From the NCBI RefSeq assembly GCF_030013905.1, contig NZ_CP124862.1, forward strand, positions 1,241,051 through 1,305,050: DNA of 64,000 nt. The letters are read 5' to 3'. Below the pieces are notes generated by a model. The model saw only the letters and a program-made list of their open reading frames with translations. It had not been told where the DNA came from and made no database searches. The DNA is from Petroclostridium sp. X23. GTDB taxonomy: Bacteria > Bacillota > Clostridia > SK-Y3. Position numbers and translations under genes: made by a program. Shown here piece by piece: positions 19,713-27,892 of this stretch. The number at the start of each line of letters is the position of its first letter. Positions within the stretch are counted from its first letter, which is position 1.

Positions 19713-20951
19713 TCATCCTACATCACGATAATCTAAAATTCTTTTTGTTTTCTTTTCACTTCTGGGCAGCCCACCAACTTCTAACGCTTCCACATGGATA
19801 CTGAGTCCGATTAGCTTTTTAAAGTGTTCTGCAACCATTGTCTCAATATCAATCTTGTTACACAAATGACTCATTTCAACTCTTAGTGTCATCACATCTT
19901 TTCCGTCAATATGTGAGACAACAACCTGGTATTCGCTGCTGACGCCTTCGATGCTTCTCAACAATCCATCAATTTGTCCCGGATAAATATTTACACCTTT
20001 TACCTTCACCATGTCATCGGTTCTGCCTATAATCCTATCCAACCGCGGATACGGCCTGCCGCATGCGCATTGGCCCGGAATAAGTCTCGTCAAATCTCTG
20101 GTTCTGTAACGCAGCAGGGGTGCTCCTTCTTTGGTGAGGGTAGTGATTACCAGTTCTCCATATTCCCCTTCGGGAAGTACGTTACCGGTAGCCGGGTCAA
20201 TGATTTCAAAATATAAATGATCATCCCAATAATGCATTCCCGAATGTTCATCACAGTCAATTGCAATCCCCGGCCCATAAATCTCGGTCAAACCATAGAT
20301 ATCATAGGTTTGTATTCCCAACTCATCTTCAATCCTTTTACGCATTTTTTCTCCCCAGCGTTCCGAACCGAATATGCCTTTTTTTAGACGAATATGCTGT
20401 TTGATTTCCCGTTTGCACACTTCTTCAGCGATGAGCAATCCGTAAGAGGAAGTGCCTATCAATACCGTGCTTTTTAAATCTACCATCATCTGAAGCTGCT
20501 TTTCGGTATTGCCGGGCCCCATAGGTACCGCCATTGCGCCAAGTTTTTCTACACCGGCCTGAAATCCTATACCTGCCGTCCACAGACCGTATCCGGGCGT
20601 AATCTGCACTCGGTCTGTTTTGGTGACCCCTGCGGTTTCCATACATCGCCCCATAAGCTCAGCCCATACATCTACATCCGACTTTGTATATGGGATAATA
20701 ACAGGCTTGCCTGTCGTTCCTGAAGATGAGTGTATTCTTACCACATCCTCATCAGGTACCGCTTGCAGACCTAACGGATATGCATCTCTAAGTTCTTCTT
20801 TGGTCGTAAAGGGTAAATACTGGATATCCTCCATGGACTGAACTTTATTGATATCGATGCCGTACTCTTCAAATTTTCTGCGGTAAAACGGACTGTTTTC
20901 CGATAATCTTTTTAATAATGTTTTGAACTGATTAAACTGTTCTCGTCTCAT
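19713..20951 (-). CDS. paaK: Phenylacetate-CoA ligase family (aryl-acetate:CoA ligase, PaaK-like)
   Basis: AMP-binding core (SSGTTGKP; YGLTE). 412 aa. Immediately downstream of iorAB. Confidence 0.75.
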   Translation of the reverse strand: MRREQFNQFKTLLKRLSENSPFYRRKFEEYGIDINKVQSMEDIQYLPFTTKEELRDAYPLGLQAVPDEDVVRIHSSSGTTGKPVIIPYTKSDVDVWAELMGRCMETAGVTKTDRVQITPGYGLWTAGIGFQAGVEKLGAMAVPMGPGNTEKQLQMMVDLKSTVLIGTSSYGLLIAEEVCKREIKQHIRLKKGIFGSERWGEKMRKRIEDELGIQTYDIYGLTEIYGPGIAIDCDEHSGMHYWDDHLYFEIIDPATGNVLPEGEYGELVITTLTKEGAPLLRYRTRDLTRLIPGQCACGRPYPRLDRIIGRTDDMVKVKGVNIYPGQIDGLLRSIEGVSSEYQVVVSHIDGKDVMTLRVEMSHLCNKIDIETMVAEHFKKLIGLSIHVEALEVGGLPRSEKKTKRILDYRDVG

Positions 20952-20965
20952 CTATATCACCTTTC

Positions 20966-21565
20966 CTATCTTGTCTGTATAGCATTCAAGCCTAATCTGA
21001 AAGCTTTTATATTCAAGTCAATATATTTTTCTTTTACATGCTGCCCAATGATCTCTTCCATCAAATCCTGAGTGACAGGCAACATCTCCAATCCAAATGC
21101 CGCTCCCAGCATCACTACATTTACCGCTTTTGACGTTCCTGCTTCAATCGCCAATGAATGTGCATCTACATAATGCACGTTTGGAATATGCTCGCTTATA
21201 AATTTTTCAATATCTTTATAATGATACGCCGCCAGTCCTAGAGAAACCGGAACGGAATTAATCCAATACTTATTGACAATACATTTTCCTGTTGGTGAAA
21301 GGCGGTTAAAGTTCCTTACCACTTCGCCCATTTCAAATCCCAGCAATAAATCGGCATTTTTCAAAGGAATGACCGAACCTGCATCCTGACTGCTGATCCT
21401 GACATGACTGGTAACACATCCGCCTCTCTGTGCCATGCCGATGGTTTCAGCCGTTCTTACAAAATATCCTGCTTCTATAGCCGCAGCCCCTAACAACCGT
21501 GATGCCAAAACAGTCCCCTGTCCTCCGACACCTCCAATAATCACATCAAACTCCATTGTTTCCAC
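20966..21565 (-). CDS. iorB: Indolepyruvate/aromatic 2-oxoacid:ferredoxin oxidoreductase subunit beta
   Basis: About 200-aa POR gamma-like domain (GGVGGQG). Overlaps iorA. Confidence 0.7.
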   Translation of the reverse strand: METMEFDVIIGGVGGQGTVLASRLLGAAAIEAGYFVRTAETIGMAQRGGCVTSHVRISSQDAGSVIPLKNADLLLGFEMGEVVRNFNRLSPTGKCIVNKYWINSVPVSLGLAAYHYKDIEKFISEHIPNVHYVDAHSLAIEAGTSKAVNVVMLGAAFGLEMLPVTQDLMEEIIGQHVKEKYIDLNIKAFRLGLNAIQTR

Positions 21566-23348
21566 CTCCTAAGGGTTGAAATGCACCCACCGGACAGACC
21601 TGGCTGCATAGACCGCATCCATTACAGAGGGACGGCTCCACTGCGGGTTTGCCTTCTTTCATATACATTGCCGGACAACCTAAATCTCTGATACATTTAT
21701 TACAACCGATACATTTCTCAGATACCGCCAAAGGGGTATCTCCCTTTATGTTTACCACACAGGGGCTCTCTAAAATCACTACCGAAGGGCCTTTAAAATC
21801 AATCGCTGCCTGCGCGGCAGCCACTGCTTCTTTTTGTACCAGCGGATTGGCCTTTTTTATGCATTTTACACCACAGGCTTTTACAATTTCATATATATCC
21901 AGCTTGGGTGCTTCTTTACCCATCACGGTCATACCGGTACCCGGATGAGGCTGATTTCCCGTCATGGCTGTCGTTCTATTATCAAGTACCGCCACCGTAA
22001 TATCGGTGTTATTATAAACGGCATTGATAATCCCCGGAATTCCCGTATGGAAAAAGGTCGAATCACCTATAAACGCTATATTCGCCGTATCGTTCTCTAC
22101 ACGGTGCAATCCCTGTGCGATCGTAATGCCTGCCCCCATGCAAAGGCAGGTATCTACAGCTTCCAATGGCTTTGCATTGCCCAGTGTATAACATCCGATA
22201 TCCCCGGAAAAAACAGCTTTTTTCCCTTTGGTGGCAACTTTAAATGCATAGAAAGATGCTCTATGCGGACATCCCGGACATAGTACCGGAGGCCTTGGAG
22301 GAAGTTCGGGAATCTGCGAAACTTGCTGAGCCGGATTAGGGATTTGAAGAAATTCGCAGACAGCATTCCTAATAAGCTCTACACTATACTCTCCCGCCAC
22401 AGGCATATGTCCTGTCTTCTTACCGGAAATGCCCGGAATCTTCTCACATTGCAAGCTGAGCTCTTTAAGCTGCTCTTCAACCACCGGATACAACTCTTCC
22501 AGCACCAGTACGTCCTCTACACTATTTAAAAACTTTAGTGCCAATTCATCAGGAAACGGGTGCGGTGTCCCGATCTTCAATACAGGCAGGCTTAGTCCCA
22601 ATTCATCGATGACTTCTTTTAAGTACGTATAAGCGACTCCTGAAACAGCGATACCTTTCTTACCTGTTCCGGTAAAACTGTTAAACCGAGAACTTGAAAA
22701 AATATGACTGAGTTCCTTTTTCTTTTCTTCCAGCTTGATATGATTCTTATAAGCCAAACTTGGAAAAATAACCCAACGAGCATCCTTTGTAAAACCTTCT
22801 ATACAAGATTGGTCTATTTCGCCTGTGAGTTCTACAGTACTGCAGGAATGGCAGATCCTTGTGGTTGTTCTCAATATCACAGGCAGCTCAAATTGATGTG
22901 ATATATCAAAGCATTCTTTAACCATCTCTTTTGCTTCTTCCGGAGTAGAAGGATCAAAAACAGGCAAATTGGCAAATTTACCGAATGCCCTGGTATCTTG
23001 CTCCGTCTGAGAAGAAAATGGCCCCGGATCATCGGCTACATATACAATCATCGCCCCTTTAATACCTACATAGCTCAAGCTCATCAGAGGGTCAGAAGCA
23101 ACATTTAATCCCACCTGTTTCATAGCAACCATCGACTTCGCACCGGTATAAGCGGCACCTGCTGCAATTTCCAATGCAACCTTCTCGTTGACCGACCATT
23201 CCACATATATTTTTTCATCTATATTATTTTCTGCAATCGTTTCAAGCATTTCAGTGGAGGGTGTCCCCGGATAACCGGTTACCACGTTCACACCCGCTTC
23301 GATTGCGCCGAAAGCGATTGCCTCGTTTCCTATTAAGAGTTTTTTCAT
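21546..23348 (-). CDS. iorA: Indolepyruvate:ferredoxin oxidoreductase subunit alpha (TPP-dependent, C-terminal 2x[4Fe-4S])
   Basis: TPP-binding region (GDSTFFHTG...N). C-terminal CIGCNKCIRDLGCP...CNGCGLCSQVCP ferredoxin motifs. 600 aa. Confidence 0.75.
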   Translation of the reverse strand: MKKLLIGNEAIAFGAIEAGVNVVTGYPGTPSTEMLETIAENNIDEKIYVEWSVNEKVALEIAAGAAYTGAKSMVAMKQVGLNVASDPLMSLSYVGIKGAMIVYVADDPGPFSSQTEQDTRAFGKFANLPVFDPSTPEEAKEMVKECFDISHQFELPVILRTTTRICHSCSTVELTGEIDQSCIEGFTKDARWVIFPSLAYKNHIKLEEKKKELSHIFSSSRFNSFTGTGKKGIAVSGVAYTYLKEVIDELGLSLPVLKIGTPHPFPDELALKFLNSVEDVLVLEELYPVVEEQLKELSLQCEKIPGISGKKTGHMPVAGEYSVELIRNAVCEFLQIPNPAQQVSQIPELPPRPPVLCPGCPHRASFYAFKVATKGKKAVFSGDIGCYTLGNAKPLEAVDTCLCMGAGITIAQGLHRVENDTANIAFIGDSTFFHTGIPGIINAVYNNTDITVAVLDNRTTAMTGNQPHPGTGMTVMGKEAPKLDIYEIVKACGVKCIKKANPLVQKEAVAAAQAAIDFKGPSVVILESPCVVNIKGDTPLAVSEKCIGCNKCIRDLGCPAMYMKEGKPAVEPSLCNGCGLCSQVCPVGAFQPLGGGNNGV

Positions 23349-23412
23349 CTTTTATCCCCTTTACATCTATTTATTGGTTCACGGTTTACAGTTCACAGAA
23401 TATTTCCACGCT

Positions 23413-23556
23413 CAAATCACATTGGTATCCATAGAAGAATACAACAAAGTCGAATTTAGCACGCAGAGGAAATCGAACTTGGGGACTGTCCCTGCTGTTT
23501 GCCCGGTTCTGGCATAACAGAGGGACTGTCCACATGTTTGATTTTCGAACGACTAA
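23413..23556 (-). repeat. Copy C of the MITE-like repeat, inverted relative to copies A, B and D
   Basis: Reverse complement reads gtgGAAAAGTGCTTAGTCG ... gggactgtccc ... gggactgtcc ... AAATTCGACTTTGTTGTATTCTTCTATGG. Aligns to copy B termini and stem-loop. Confidence 0.5.
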
Positions 23557-23560
23557 GCAC

Positions 23561-23645
23561 TTTTCCACATCTTGTTTAGTGTAGTGGCAGGCCTTGTGTC
23601 TGCCCGAATACCCCTAAGCATTTTTATGGGGGTAGACACAAGGCC
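23561..23645. repeat. About 85-nt imperfect hairpin (13-bp perfect core stem) in the iorA upstream region
   Basis: aggccttgtgtct ... agacacaaggcct with a nested acccc/ggggt stem. Flanked by gtagtggc / gcctacccctaccac. Confidence 0.4.
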
Positions 23646-23759
23646 TACCCCTACCACCAATCATCTGATTTATTATGTTAAAAGAAAGATATATATTACC
23701 CTAAGCATGTGCAACTTATTATTTTATGCTCTAAAATATATTTTATACCAAAATAACAC

Positions 23760-24542
23760 TTATATCAATATTGATATAAACGTTATTGCAATAAGACATA
23801 TAATAACCGCATAATCCTTTGTTTTCATATCCACCTGGTTGTAGTGAGAACGCGGGCCTGCACCAAAACCTCTCACTTCCATGGATATCGCCATTTTTTC
23901 TGCTTTTTTTACCGATGATATCAATAGAGGGATGGCAAGCGGTATAATAATAAATAATTTTTTGAATGGGTTTCTTGTGTCCGAATCATACCCTCTGGAT
24001 TTTTGTGCCTGTAGGATTTGATCCATCTCTTCCATAAAAGTCGGTATAAATCTCAAAGAAGTAACAAACATAAATGCATATTTAAAAGGAACCTTACATT
24101 TTTCAGTCAGTACTACAACGATATCTTTCATCTGCGTCGTGGTCATCAGAATGGGTATAGTAGAAGTTGTCGCCAACATCCTAAGCGCCAGGACAGCACT
24201 GTATTCCAAACCTACATCGGTGATTCTTCCGATGTTTACAAAAGGGATGATATAAAAAAGTGTATTTCCTTCTGTCACGAAAAATATTTGAAAAAGTATT
24301 AATAATAAAGAAAATATAAACAATCCTATAATTGCGGGCAATACTTGCTTTAAAACTTTGGATAATGCTGCTACGGCTAAATTGCTGATCAACACTAATA
24401 ATATGGCAGCGGGCTGATTAAACATAAAACATATGGTTAATACAGCAATGGTCCATAATATTTTGGTAATGGGATTCAATTTATGCATCACCGTATTTGC
24501 GGGAATATATTCAACCAATGCCGGCATTTTTTTCACCTTCAA
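23760..24542 (-). CDS. ecfT: ECF transporter transmembrane (T) component
   Basis: CbiQ-family polytopic membrane protein, 260 aa. Overlaps ecfA. Confidence 0.7.
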   Translation of the reverse strand: MKVKKMPALVEYIPANTVMHKLNPITKILWTIAVLTICFMFNQPAAILLVLISNLAVAALSKVLKQVLPAIIGLFIFSLLLILFQIFFVTEGNTLFYIIPFVNIGRITDVGLEYSAVLALRMLATTSTIPILMTTTQMKDIVVVLTEKCKVPFKYAFMFVTSLRFIPTFMEEMDQILQAQKSRGYDSDTRNPFKKLFIIIPLAIPLLISSVKKAEKMAISMEVRGFGAGPRSHYNQVDMKTKDYAVIICLIAITFISILI

Positions 24543-25347
24543 TCAAATAAATAACTTGTTCATACATTTGTTCGGCGGTCATCATATCTTTGAAATAGCC
24601 TTTTTTGTGAAATTTTTGTGCCAAACTTAGAATTTGCGGACAACTAAGCTTTGCTTGTTTCACACTCTCATGCTTGACAAATACTTCTTCAGGTCTGCCA
24701 TCCTCTAAAACAACACCGCCGCTTAAAATGACGGCCCTTGATGCATACTTCGCTACCAATTCCATATCATGGGTAACCATAATGATGGTCTTTCCCATCG
24801 TATTCAATTCTTGAATCATCTCCATGATTTCAATACTTTCCTGATAGTCCTGCCCTGTAGTCGGTTCATCCAATACGATAATATCTACATCCAAAGCAAG
24901 AATAGATGCAAGCGCCACTCTTTGTCTCTGTCCTTTGCTCAAAGAAAAGGGATTCACATCAAGGAATTCTTCAAGGCCTACTCTTTTCGCAGCTTTTTTT
25001 ATTCTTGTCTCCATATCCGACTTGGATAGTTTTAAAACCTTCAAACCAAAGGCGATCTCTTCATAGACCGTATTACAAAAAATTTGGTGATCGGGATTTT
25101 GAAATAAAAAACCGATATGCTGGGCTAATCTGCTGGTTTTATGTCTTCTGGTATCCAGTTCCTTCACCATCACCTTGCCGCCCGTTGGCTTGAGCAATCC
25201 GTTGAAGTGTTTTAACAACGTGGTTTTCCCTGCACCGTTCTGCCCCACAAAAGCAACAAATTCACCTTTGCGGATGTGTAGAGAGATATCTTTTAAAATG
25301 TCTTTTCCGTCTATATAACCAAATGTAAGATTCTCAATCTTAATCAC
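24511..25347 (-). CDS. ecfA: ECF transporter ATPase component
   Basis: Walker A GQNGAGKTT, ABC signature LSKGQRQRV, Walker B ILDEPT. Confidence 0.75.
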   Translation of the reverse strand: MIKIENLTFGYIDGKDILKDISLHIRKGEFVAFVGQNGAGKTTLLKHFNGLLKPTGGKVMVKELDTRRHKTSRLAQHIGFLFQNPDHQIFCNTVYEEIAFGLKVLKLSKSDMETRIKKAAKRVGLEEFLDVNPFSLSKGQRQRVALASILALDVDIIVLDEPTTGQDYQESIEIMEMIQELNTMGKTIIMVTHDMELVAKYASRAVILSGGVVLEDGRPEEVFVKHESVKQAKLSCPQILSLAQKFHKKGYFKDMMTAEQMYEQVIYLIEGEKNAGIG

Positions 25348-26213
25348 TGAAATCTCCCCTTATCCTGCAATACTTTACTTACAACCAAATAGGCTTCGTC
25401 CACATTGATCGGAAATTCACCATGATATAAGCCTTTTTGTTTCAGCATATACGCCAGCTGTGTCACCGGCGGACAGTTTACTCCAAGCCCTTGGAGGGTA
25501 TCCTGCCGGGAGAGCACTTCCCGGCAGGGACCTTCTATCGCTATCTTTCCTTTGTCCAGTACAACCAAGCGGCTGCAATATTCAGCAAGGTACTGAATTT
25601 TTTGTTCTATGATAATGACAGTAATGCCATATAGTTCATTAAGGTTCTTCAGAGTCTCATAAATTGCAAGCGTTCCTTGCGGATCCAATTCAGATGTGGG
25701 CTCATCCAATACCAGAATTTTAGGACGAAGCGCAATGGCCGCTGCTATGGCTACCCTCTGTTTTTGTCCACCGGACAATCTCGCAGTAGAATAATTCCTC
25801 AATTGGGAGATCCCCGTCATCTCTAATGCTGTTGTAATTCTTTCTTCCATTTCATATCTCGGAAGATTCAGATTTTCCAATCCAAAAGCAACTTCATCCT
25901 CTACAACCGTCGCTACAATCTGCGCTTCAGGATCTTGAAAAACACTTCCGATAGAACCGGCTAGGGCTACACAGTCATTGTCAACCGTATCTTTCTGATC
26001 AACCATGACACTCCCATAAAAATCACCTTGATAAAAGTGAGGAATAACACCGTTCATACATAAAGCCAATGTTGATTTTCCTGCTCCTGTAGGCCCTGTA
26101 ATTCCTATAAACTCACCTTCATGAATATCCATATTGATCTGTTGGAGCGAAGCTTTTTTGGAATTTTGATATATAAACGTTAAATCAGAAATTTTTAAAA
26201 TACTACTCATCAT
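25344..26213 (-). CDS. ecfA: ECF transporter ATPase component, second paralog
   Basis: Walker A GPTGAGKST, signature LSGGQKQRV, Walker B LVLDEPT. Confidence 0.75.
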   Translation of the reverse strand: MMSSILKISDLTFIYQNSKKASLQQINMDIHEGEFIGITGPTGAGKSTLALCMNGVIPHFYQGDFYGSVMVDQKDTVDNDCVALAGSIGSVFQDPEAQIVATVVEDEVAFGLENLNLPRYEMEERITTALEMTGISQLRNYSTARLSGGQKQRVAIAAAIALRPKILVLDEPTSELDPQGTLAIYETLKNLNELYGITVIIIEQKIQYLAEYCSRLVVLDKGKIAIEGPCREVLSRQDTLQGLGVNCPPVTQLAYMLKQKGLYHGEFPINVDEAYLVVSKVLQDKGRFQ

Positions 26214-26769
26214 TCTTCCCCAATGCCATTTTAATAGGATAATATAATACTTGTGCCAAAACTGAATTCACTACCGCAGTCACCACTACTACAGTTAACA
26301 AATACGTAAACGCCGGGTTCTTAGGTGTTTCGATAAACAGAATCAAGAATTTAAGAATGGTAATATAGGTTAATCCACTGGCAGCGGTACCTAAAAATGT
26401 TACAACAAATGGCTTTAATGAGTACTTGCCTCCTAATGAAAGCTTAAACGGCGCCATTACCAATAATCCGGCTACAATCGCACCAATAGGTTCACTGGCA
26501 AAATTAATATAAGGAATGAGCGATTTCGTAGTAAAATGACATACCGCCGCTGCAACAATCCCTATGCCGATCACTTCTTTAAAAGAAGGCCTGATTAAAA
26601 GAATTGCCAAACAATACATTCCGATAACAAGATTGGGAGTAATCCCGAAAAATGGCGGTGTATACAATCTAAGTACCGCTCCGGCAGCAATCAATATACC
26701 CGCCAGCACTACATCTACCGCTTTTAGTTCTCTCTTTTTCACTTCTCTTTTTACTGCTGTTTCCATCAT
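26203..26769 (-). CDS. ECF transporter substrate-specific (S) component; likely tryptophan-specific (TrpP-like), judged from its leader
   Basis: 188 aa with about 6 TM helices, immediately upstream of ecfA'-ecfA-ecfT. The leader carries GAG repeats. Confidence 0.55.
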   Translation of the reverse strand: MMETAVKREVKKRELKAVDVVLAGILIAAGAVLRLYTPPFFGITPNLVIGMYCLAILLIRPSFKEVIGIGIVAAAVCHFTTKSLIPYINFASEPIGAIVAGLLVMAPFKLSLGGKYSLKPFVVTFLGTAASGLTYITILKFLILFIETPKNPAFTYLLTVVVVTAVVNSVLAQVLYYPIKMALGKNDE

Positions 26770-26840
26770 TCATCAACCTCCAAAATATTTTTTGTTAGTC
26801 AGTCTAAGATAAGGTATTTGGGGCTGAGTGATGTTTATAA

Positions 26841-26880
26841 CCAATAAAATAGCAGTAGGATGAAAAATCCTACTGCTGAT
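26841..26880 (-). terminator. Leader intrinsic terminator (attenuator) upstream of the S-component gene
   Basis: Minus strand: cagcagtaggat-ttttc-atcctactgct followed by ATTTTATTGG. It lies downstream of the gene's own TTGACA-17-TATACT promoter and about 80 nt before the start codon. Confidence 0.55.
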
Positions 26881-26909
26881 ATTCTCTAAAATATTTCAGC
26901 TAATGCAGA

Positions 26910-26961
26910 CTCATCTCTTCTCATCTCAACTCAGCTATATAATTTTCTCTCATCTCATCTC
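26910..26961 (-). promoter_or_regulatory. Cluster of (G/U)AG triplet repeats with 2-nt spacers: candidate TRAP (MtrB) binding site
   Basis: Minus strand: GAG-at-GAG-at-GAG ... 14 nt ... GAG-tt-GAG-at-GAG-aa-GAG-at-GAG, then further UAG triplets, all upstream of the leader terminator. Confidence 0.5.
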
Positions 26962-26981
26962 GAACCTAACTAGTTATTTAT

Positions 26982-27010
26982 AGTATAAATAAAAGCCTCA
27001 ATATTGTCAA
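26982..27010 (-). promoter_or_regulatory. Sigma-A type promoter for the ECF S-component operon
   Basis: Minus strand: TTGACA-17 nt-TATACT. Confidence 0.5.
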
Positions 27011-27052
27011 TCATTTTTAAATATTATTCTGATCTATCAACATGATGAAAGC

Positions 27053-27892
27053 TTATTTATGATTCTCTACAAACCAATCTATCAAACTCCTCGAAATACT
27101 GATATGATTAGGAATCTCCGGAAGATTTTCCGCACCAAACCAGCCTGCATCATCATTCTCAGTTCCGTCAACAGTGATTTCTCCACCTGCGTATTCCGCC
27201 GTAAAAGCAATCATCATTGAGTTGGGAAACGGCCATGATTGACTTCCGAAGTACTTGATATTTTTTACCTCAATGCCCATTTCCTCCATTACTTCTCTTT
27301 TTACACAATCCTCCAGCGCTTCACCCGGTTCTACAAAACCGGCGATGACACTGTACATCTTATGGGTAAACCTTTTAGCGTGGGCAAGTAAAATCTTTGA
27401 ATCTTTTACAACCGCAACGATAATGGCCGGTGAAATATTTGGGTAACTGAGCAGTCCGCACGCCGGACAGATCTTTGCCCTTTCATCTTGTTTAAAATTT
27501 GTTTCTTTTCCGCATCTGCCGCAATAGCGATGAGTCTGATCCCACAATAAAATCTGATATGCCCGTCCCGCAAGCAAAAACAGATGATCATCCACAGTAC
27601 CGAATAGTGATCTTAAGTCTTTCCAGCAAAGTTTTGAGGAATTTTCTTTGCTATCACTGATTTGCGCAAGGTAGCAATGCTTACCCTCGTACAACCCCAG
27701 GTATTGTTTGCGCTGTAACGAAATGTTATTCTCTATTAAAAAATCATTGGATGGAATGGTCACTTTTCCATCGTCTGCCGGTACTACCATGATTTTATTG
27801 TTGTCAAAAACCAACCACAGCGTGTCTTTATTAGGCTCATCTTCACAGAGATAGGCAGGAACATACTTTTCATAGATACTTGATGTTATCAT
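27053..27892 (-). CDS. nudC: NAD+ diphosphatase (NADH pyrophosphatase, Nudix family)
   Basis: Zinc ribbon CGRCG...CPACG. Nudix box GFVEPGEALEDCVKREVMEEMG. Confidence 0.75.
   Translation of the reverse strand: MITSSIYEKYVPAYLCEDEPNKDTLWLVFDNNKIMVVPADDGKVTIPSNDFLIENNISLQRKQYLGLYEGKHCYLAQISDSKENSSKLCWKDLRSLFGTVDDHLFLLAGRAYQILLWDQTHRYCGRCGKETNFKQDERAKICPACGLLSYPNISPAIIVAVVKDSKILLAHAKRFTHKMYSVIAGFVEPGEALEDCVKREVMEEMGIEVKNIKYFGSQSWPFPNSMMIAFTAEYAGGEITVDGTENDDAGWFGAENLPEIPNHISISRSLIDWFVENHK

Follow-up and report, generated by a model that had tools for sequence, protein, structure and literature searches.

The trpP-ecf Operon and Its Leader

The window, i.e., the whole stretch of 64,000 nucleotides of Petroclostridium sp. 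X23 that was analysed, carries on one strand a set of transporter genes and, past them, genes of aromatic acid metabolism:

26203..26769, minus strand: trpP, S component of an ECF transporter, 188 aa, Pfam PF17099 (37.8 bits, cut-off 27.2)
26213-25344, minus strand: ecfA, first gene of the dedicated ECF module (23760..26213)
25347-24511, minus strand: ecfA', same module
24542-23760, minus strand: ecfT, same module
19713..23348, minus strand: iorA, iorB, and the gene of a PaaK-type aryl-acetate-CoA ligase (paaK), 410 nt past ecfT

The TrpP protein is 100% identical to the one that NCBI names "tryptophan transporter [Petroclostridium sp. X23]". The earlier note on this DNA had described it as an orphan S component, which the leader would assign as a tryptophan carrier. 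The first part was mistaken: trpP has its own ecfA, ecfA', and ecfT directly downstream, the successive stops and starts of trpP, the two ATPase genes, and the T-component gene overlap, and the whole is thus a dedicated ECF transporter. The second part had been overtaken, since the NCBI name and the Pfam TrpP match already give the assignment; the leader adds regulatory evidence for it, separate from protein homology. Relatives with contigs of sufficient length have the same trpP-ecfA-ecfA'-ecfT order. The adjacent indolepyruvate oxidoreductase genes are present as the note had said, iorA matching the NCBIfam equivalog TIGR03336 with 779 bits.

Upstream of trpP lies a leader whose features, by inspection of the sequence, all belong to the minus strand of the window:

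27005..27010, minus strand: −35 hexamer TTGACA (promoter scan)
26982..26987, minus strand: −10 hexamer TATACT, separated from the −35 hexamer by a 17-nt spacer (promoter scan)
26949..26961, minus strand: triplet block 1, GAG-au-GAG-au-GAG, with a GAG overlapping at 26949
26910..26937, minus strand: triplet block 2, UAG-cu-GAG-uu-GAG-au-GAG-aa-GAG-au-GAG
26870..26902, minus strand: three widely spaced extra UAGs, starting at 26902, 26888, and 26872, a GAG at 26886 overlapping the second of them
26843..26877, minus strand: intrinsic terminator AGCAGUAGGAU-UUUUC-AUCCUACUGCU (hairpin 26877-26851), then AUUUUAUU (folding and terminator scan)
26781-26777, minus strand: ribosome-binding site (RBS) GGAGG, about 60 nt beyond the terminator
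26769, minus strand: trpP start codon, ATG

Most of this layout had been read correctly in the earlier note. The TTGACA-17-TATACT promoter that it reported is found at 27010-26982 and matches 11 of the 12 consensus positions; from the position of its hexamers, transcription would start at about 26975. In the direction of transcription, the order is promoter (27010-26982), tract (26961-26910), and ATG (26769), which places the tract inside the presumed transcribed leader. We also count the eight non-overlapping GAGs that had been announced, to which an in-register UAG has to be added, and we recover the UAGs that follow them. These extra UAGs fall within the predicted antiterminator and the 5' arm of the terminator, and could be auxiliary contacts of a binding protein. 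The terminator and the RBS behind it are likewise found, with one correction, to the stem, which forms 11 pairs on the transcribed strand where the note had counted 12. It is a perfect stem with a 5-nt loop and a predicted energy of −16.0 kcal/mol.

The tract itself thus comprises nine phased (G/U)AG triplets, arranged as three plus six, the two blocks being separated by an A/U-rich gap of 11 nt. Their starts are spaced by 5, 5, 14, 5, 5, 5, 5, and 5 nt. Hence, the nine triplets occupy nine of the 11 slots of a five-nucleotide register that extends over 52 nt, and the gap between the blocks corresponds to two skipped slots.

A Conserved, Non-Random Triplet Tract

The phased (G/U)AG tract is not a product of chance. 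Its five-GAG pattern, GAGNNGAGNNGAGNNGAGNNGAG, has a single match in the window and none in 100 shuffles that preserve dinucleotide composition. The pattern GAGNNGAGNNGAG has four matches in the 64 kb, for 0.21 expected, and all four lie within the trpP leader. Moreover, when both strands are scanned, the tract of this leader is the longest (G/T)AG chain of the window.

Scanning one genome per species yielded 11 trpP loci, with 62-90% identity at the protein level, among them those of Pseudobacteroides cellulosolvens, a Moorellaceae isolate, a Peptococcaceae metagenome-assembled genome (MAG), and several Clostridia MAGs. Ten of the 11 display the same succession of elements, i.e., a promoter, two to five (G/U)AG triplets, a gap of 6-17 nt, three to seven GAGs, 15-30 nt, and a hairpin followed by a U-run; the sole locus in which this layout is not clear is L009. 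A strict cluster scan flags nine of the 11, L007 and L009 staying below threshold, and the tract of L007 was identified by eye. At each flagged genome locus, there is a single intergenic (G/U)AG cluster, and it is the one that precedes trpP. A scan of metagenomes with the family alignment added 80 trpP loci, five of which have full tracts. Altogether, 15 loci share the layout of the window (L001-L008, L010, and L011 in genomes; L022, L024, L029, L032, and L057 in metagenomes). Among the GAG leaders, the spacers, the flanks, and the non-triplet bases differ widely, and the GC content of those from genomes ranges from 36 to 60%.

More distant orthologs use another device at the same place. In 11 metagenome loci, trpP is preceded by a T-box leader (E-values of 1e-10 to 1e-21), and in the three alignments that were inspected out of these 11, the specifier is UGG, the tryptophan codon. 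The GAG tract sits where these other members of the family have a tryptophan T-box, which speaks both for tryptophan as the substrate of the transporter and for a tract that responds to it.

Several loci show additional arrangements. In L022, L057, L009, L025, and L033, further GAG repeats run across the RBS or the beginning of the trpP reading frame, a placement known from the site of B. subtilis trpP; L022 and L057 combine this start-site cluster with the upstream attenuator, and L033 combines a cluster at the start codon with a T-box. In L024, a locus with a GAG leader, a 21-nt unit, ctcttcactacgcactacagg, is repeated in tandem about five times within positions 1-100, immediately ahead of the trpP promoter.

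Predicted Alternative Hairpins in the Leader

The earlier note had proposed to fold the leader in search of competing structures, and both an antiterminator and a terminator hairpin are indeed predicted. Folding the full leader keeps the terminator intact, and the overall energy is no more stable than that of shuffled sequences (z = −0.99). Two further hairpins emerge from the predictions:

26862..26915, minus strand: predicted antiterminator hairpin, about −11.9 kcal/mol (folds of nascent transcripts)
26764..26833, minus strand: predicted hairpin burying the RBS GGAGG and the start codon, −17.7 kcal/mol (folding)

The 5' strand of the antiterminator begins in the last GAG of the tract and takes in the UAG at 26902, and its 3' strand consists of the entire 5' arm of the terminator plus the loop. 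When the nascent transcript is folded up to the terminator loop, the bases of the arm are paired with a probability of 0.6-0.97 at 10 of the 11 positions and of 0.23 at the eleventh (leader position 106). Since the antiterminator (−11.9 kcal/mol) is the less stable of the two hairpins, the terminator reaching −16.0 kcal/mol, read-through would depend on the order of folding.

This pairing is predicted for 14 leaders that represent six clades and differ in sequence, for instance:

Window: last-GAG segment GAGUCUGC, terminator-arm partner GCAGUAGGAU
L002: last-GAG segment GAUGAGCCC, terminator-arm partner GGGUUUAUC
L004 group: last-GAG segment GAGCCUG, terminator-arm partner CCAGGUU
L007: last-GAG segment GGCUGG, terminator-arm partner CAGCCU

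Aligning the antiterminator segments with MAFFT and submitting them to RNAalifold gave zero predicted pairs, because the alignment ignores structure. As these segments cannot be aligned, we used an alignment-free swap test, in which the last GAG with 8 further nt was paired with the 5' arm and loop of the terminator, and the duplex energy was computed for the six clades. The native combinations sum to −58.8 kcal/mol, while 265 cross-clade derangements have a mean of −37.5 and a best value of −49.4 kcal/mol; none of the 265 reaches the native sum. These computed energies indicate a covariation that favors the antiterminator. In the window taken alone, the last-GAG segment forms a weak duplex with the arm of the terminator (−5.7 kcal/mol), and the antiterminator relies on a hairpin made of several segments.

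The hairpin that buries the RBS offers a possible second, translational layer, like the one that controls trpE in B. subtilis. Its 5' strand (26834-26822) is also complementary to the GAG tract at 26936-26921, with a predicted energy of −14.2 kcal/mol. This value is matched or beaten in 31 of 500 shuffles, which makes the window a weak witness for pairing between the tract and this hairpin. Most clades have, past the terminator and ahead of the RBS, a segment complementary to the RBS region. In the Pseudobacteroides-type leaders L004, L005, and L008, the predicted accessibility of the RBS falls from 0.18-0.39 to about 0 once the tract is masked. The drop is far smaller in L003 and L006 (from 0.08 and 0.03, respectively, to about 0), and masking leaves accessibility unchanged in the window, L001, and L002 (0.20 in both states). 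On these models, the translational layer is only a lead, and a weak one in the window.

TRAP in Anaerobic Bacillota

[quoted passage not shown] A tblastn search of the window for TRAP returned nothing, and the same search in 105 fetched loci returned only the TRAP contigs that had been fetched deliberately, with none at any trpP locus. In the TRAP homolog searches, no Petroclostridium protein figures among the best 120 of 4559 matches, nor among the best 120 of 2790. With a Geobacillus TRAP as the query, only Bacillaceae appear among the matches listed (the best 120); with a TRAP fragment from a low-GC Clostridial source, the best 120 include Desulfotomaculia, Peptococcaceae, Thermincolia, and Clostridia MAGs. 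A search of representatives at 50% identity gave 127 proteins.

Judging from these sequences, TRAP is widespread in anaerobic Bacillota, as it is found in Desulfotomaculum, Pelotomaculum, Desulfallas, Calderihabitans, Thermincolia, Peptococcaceae, and MAGs named "Clostridia bacterium". The proteins of this group keep E36, K37, K56, and R58 (B. subtilis numbering), which we take to be the RNA-binding residues of TRAP, together with the GLTRGxDT loop. The longer contigs examined (L012, L013, L015, L018, L099, and L100) all have mtrB between dnaE and pfkA, in some cases with other genes interposed: pgpA, a small gene of DUF2007-like type, or accD plus accA. In Bacillus, mtrB belongs to the mtrAB (folE-mtrB) operon. 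One of the GAG leaders, that of L010, comes from a Peptococcaceae MAG; the leader and TRAP therefore co-occur, at family level only. Two TRAP contigs labeled "Clostridia bacterium" were not matched to the same MAG as any trpP locus.

Two other groups of proteins came up in these searches. Ten large ones (P0307, P0334, P0344-P0347, P0349, P0356, P0359, and P0362), of 440-2268 aa, contain two to seven TRAP-like stretches each, with 22-34% identity to the 75-aa TRAP; by sequence, they look like tandem TRAP-like domains within one polypeptide. Several of the 50%-identity "TRAP" representatives (L017/P0284, P0300, and similar ones) end in a LSLIHI-type sequence, presumably translated sequencing adapter. 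Their contigs are thus probably chimeric, and these representatives are unsuitable, taken whole, as queries.

A Probable Tryptophan Off-Switch and Its Alternatives

We consider it likely that the trpP leader is a TRAP-type, protein-mediated transcription attenuator that switches the operon off in the presence of tryptophan. The earlier note had proposed a TRAP-type tryptophan attenuator as well, and much of that proposal has gained ground: the tract is non-random and conserved, the antiterminator covaries, the gene is that of TrpP, and tryptophan T-boxes precede its orthologs elsewhere. For the remainder, we infer that TRAP is the binding protein, that mtrB is present in the genome, and that the switch is off at high tryptophan.

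The mechanism would be the following. Transcription would begin near 26975. When tryptophan is plentiful, TRAP loaded with tryptophan, a ring of 11 or 12 subunits, would wrap the 52-nt tract of nine triplets, which should fit the ring by filling nine of 11 slots. Since the last GAG, probably with the next UAG, would provide the 5' strand of the antiterminator, the bound protein would block this hairpin; the 11-bp terminator would then fold and transcription would stop before trpP. When tryptophan is scarce, the tract would be free, the antiterminator would form first and sequester the 5' arm of the terminator, and the polymerase would read into the transporter genes.

Could the tract be non-regulatory? 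It might be a purine-rich stretch of low complexity in front of a leaky or constitutive terminator, or else a misread riboswitch, T-box, or leader-peptide attenuator. The folding energy of the whole leader, no better than that of shuffles, would suit such a view. On the other hand, the register of the triplets is kept across distant Clostridia while the spacers vary, and shuffles never produce it. Among the specific forms of this explanation, the T-box and the riboswitch are ruled out by the Rfam search, in which no family matches the leader even at E = 10 (26700-27100) and the T-box family RF00230 has no match at the gathering score in the window; the GAG repeats do not lie inside a riboswitch of another class, which the earlier note would have taken as a refutation. 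Leader-peptide attenuation was rejected too: the leader has no tryptophan codons, and the only small frames in the tract, M-R-stop and MRENYIAELR-stop, have neither such a codon nor an RBS. We therefore regard a non-regulatory or misread tract as very improbable. We would give marginally less credit still to a HutP-like antiterminator protein, which would bind the UAG and GAG triplets, prevent termination, and let its ligand switch the operon on. HutP recognizes two sets of three UAG triplets with 4-nt spacers, its site overlaps the terminator, and its effect is activation. The UAGs at 26902, 26888, and 26872 do lie in the 5' arm of the terminator or just before it, but they are 7-11 nt apart, and the phased triplets are GAGs with 2-nt spacers placed upstream of the terminator, a poor fit for HutP.

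The alternative that deserves more attention, although we hold it to be unlikely, accepts the attenuator as real and has it read by a different, uncharacterised RNA-binding protein, in a genome devoid of mtrB and with an effector that is not necessarily tryptophan. The outcome of the TRAP searches, both in the window and among the best-ranked matches, speaks for it, and so does the conserved division of the tract into two blocks with a gap of 8-17 nt, unlike the continuous site of the Bacillus trp leader. Against it, no conserved candidate regulator gene accompanies the operon at any locus, the bacterial groups concerned commonly have TRAP, the regulated gene is that of a tryptophan transporter, and its orthologs use tryptophan T-boxes. 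Moreover, we know of no protein besides TRAP that reads (G/U)AG at 5-nt spacing. Control by tryptophan-loaded TRAP thus remains our preferred reading.

Comparison with Known Systems

In B. subtilis, the TRAP site of the trp leader comprises 11 repeats, from +36 to +91 (PMC3064811), and TRAP sites are defined by 9-11 NAG repeats (PMC4347634, PMC3064811). There, a tract that is kept single-stranded deprives the antiterminator of its 5' strand, and the terminator forms (PMC3064811, PMC4347634). The window leader resembles that of B. subtilis trpEDCFBA in its phased (G/U)AG triplets with 2-3-nt spacers, spread over about 50-56 nt of a 5' leader, and in a tract whose 3' end overlaps the 5' strand of an antiterminator in competition with a downstream terminator. 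It also recalls the translational control of trpE by its possible RBS-sequestering hairpin, whose 5' strand is able to pair with the tract.

The two leaders differ in several respects. The window tract has nine triplets split into three plus six by 11 nt, whereas that of B. subtilis has 11 continuous ones. The window terminator is strong and canonical, with 11 perfect pairs, while the B. subtilis trp attenuator is weak. The antiterminator of the window covers the whole 5' arm of the terminator, when that of B. subtilis trp shares only three residues with it (PMC3064811). Finally, the target in the window is a transporter operon, in an anaerobe of the Clostridium class, instead of a biosynthetic operon.

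The trpP gene of the window is homologous to that of B. subtilis, which is known to be under TRAP control, and its leader would work like the B. subtilis trp attenuator. The site of B. subtilis trpP (yhaG) is associated with the same PF17099 family, and presumably with an identical regulator and signal. In B. subtilis, the triplets overlap the RBS and the start codon of trpP, and the protein is a solitary S component that works on a shared ECF module. The control is translational there, whereas in the window the tract is linked to a terminator and ends about 130 nt short of the RBS, and the operon has its own ecf module. According to the titles cited in PMC4347634, TRAP regulates B. subtilis trpP and represses its translation.

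The tryptophan T-box leaders of the trpP orthologs are alike in position, in gene family, and in their terminator/antiterminator output, but their sensor is an uncharged tRNA-Trp read by the RNA itself; the window leader contains no T-box, and we propose a tryptophan-loaded protein in its stead. The hut system, for its part, also involves a ring-shaped protein that reads repeated NAG triplets in a leader beside a terminator, with a spacing and a position that the window does not match.

We found no earlier report of TRAP sites before ECF trpP genes in Clostridia, in a search that reached few of the pertinent subscription papers; such sites may already figure in comparative-genomics databases. 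Taken as a whole, our proposal is supported but not proven, and its more novel aspects are the transcriptional control of trpP, the possible translational layer, and the linkage to iorAB-paaK. TRAP has been studied almost solely in Bacillus and close relatives, and this leader with its 15 relatives suggests a wide use in Clostridia, under a different design, i.e., a split tract, a strong terminator, an antiterminator as wide as the arm, and a dedicated ECF importer of tryptophan. These leaders would be natural variants of TRAP sites, with which to test the number of triplets and the size of the gap that the ring tolerates.

Linkage to iorA-iorB-paaK

At every locus long enough to tell, the trpP-ecf genes adjoin iorA-iorB-paaK. 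The ior genes follow trpP-ecf in the window, L002, and L009, and precede it in L004, L005, L006, L008, and L011. In L002, ecfT and iorA are separated by only about 40 nt, which would put all seven genes behind the GAG leader. In the window, the 410 nt between ecfT and iorA (23348-23760) are devoid of predicted terminators, and the trpP-ecfA-ecfA'-ecfT operon possibly extends into iorA-iorB-paaK. No second GAG leader was found before iorA at the trpP-ior loci, including those where the ior genes are upstream.

A broader reading, which we offer as speculative and rather doubtful, is that of a Clostridial TRAP regulon centred on the acquisition of tryptophan and not on its synthesis. At high tryptophan, the attenuator, possibly helped by RBS sequestration, would shut down the ECF importer and, in some lineages (L002, perhaps the window), also the indolepyruvate oxidoreductase (IOR) and the aryl-acetate-CoA ligase; these enzymes would be anabolic, and the substrate of the S component would be tryptophan or an indolic acid. 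Repression of IOR and the ligase by tryptophan would imply the anabolic direction, in which tryptophan is made from indole-3-acetate by reductive carboxylation. If the switch is off at high tryptophan, a route from indoleacetate through indoleacetyl-CoA and indolepyruvate to tryptophan fits the arrangement of L002 and the window. That anaerobes make tryptophan from indoleacetate is an old idea of rumen microbiology, which the link between uptake and iorAB-paaK could make testable. For an anabolic role, Methanococcus maripaludis provides a precedent (work of Porat et al., cited in PMC4162585).

Two minor observations concern the flanks of the ior genes. The spacer between ecfT and iorA in the window, especially 23581-23654, contains a GC-rich inverted repeat of 30 nt (83% complementary) and two copies of the direct repeat GGGACTGTCC; it may hold an inserted element or a structure involved in processing or stability. 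Where the ior genes are located upstream of trpP, they share a conserved motif of their own in the promoter region, aagctttacttcc ... ttggcttataatttt.
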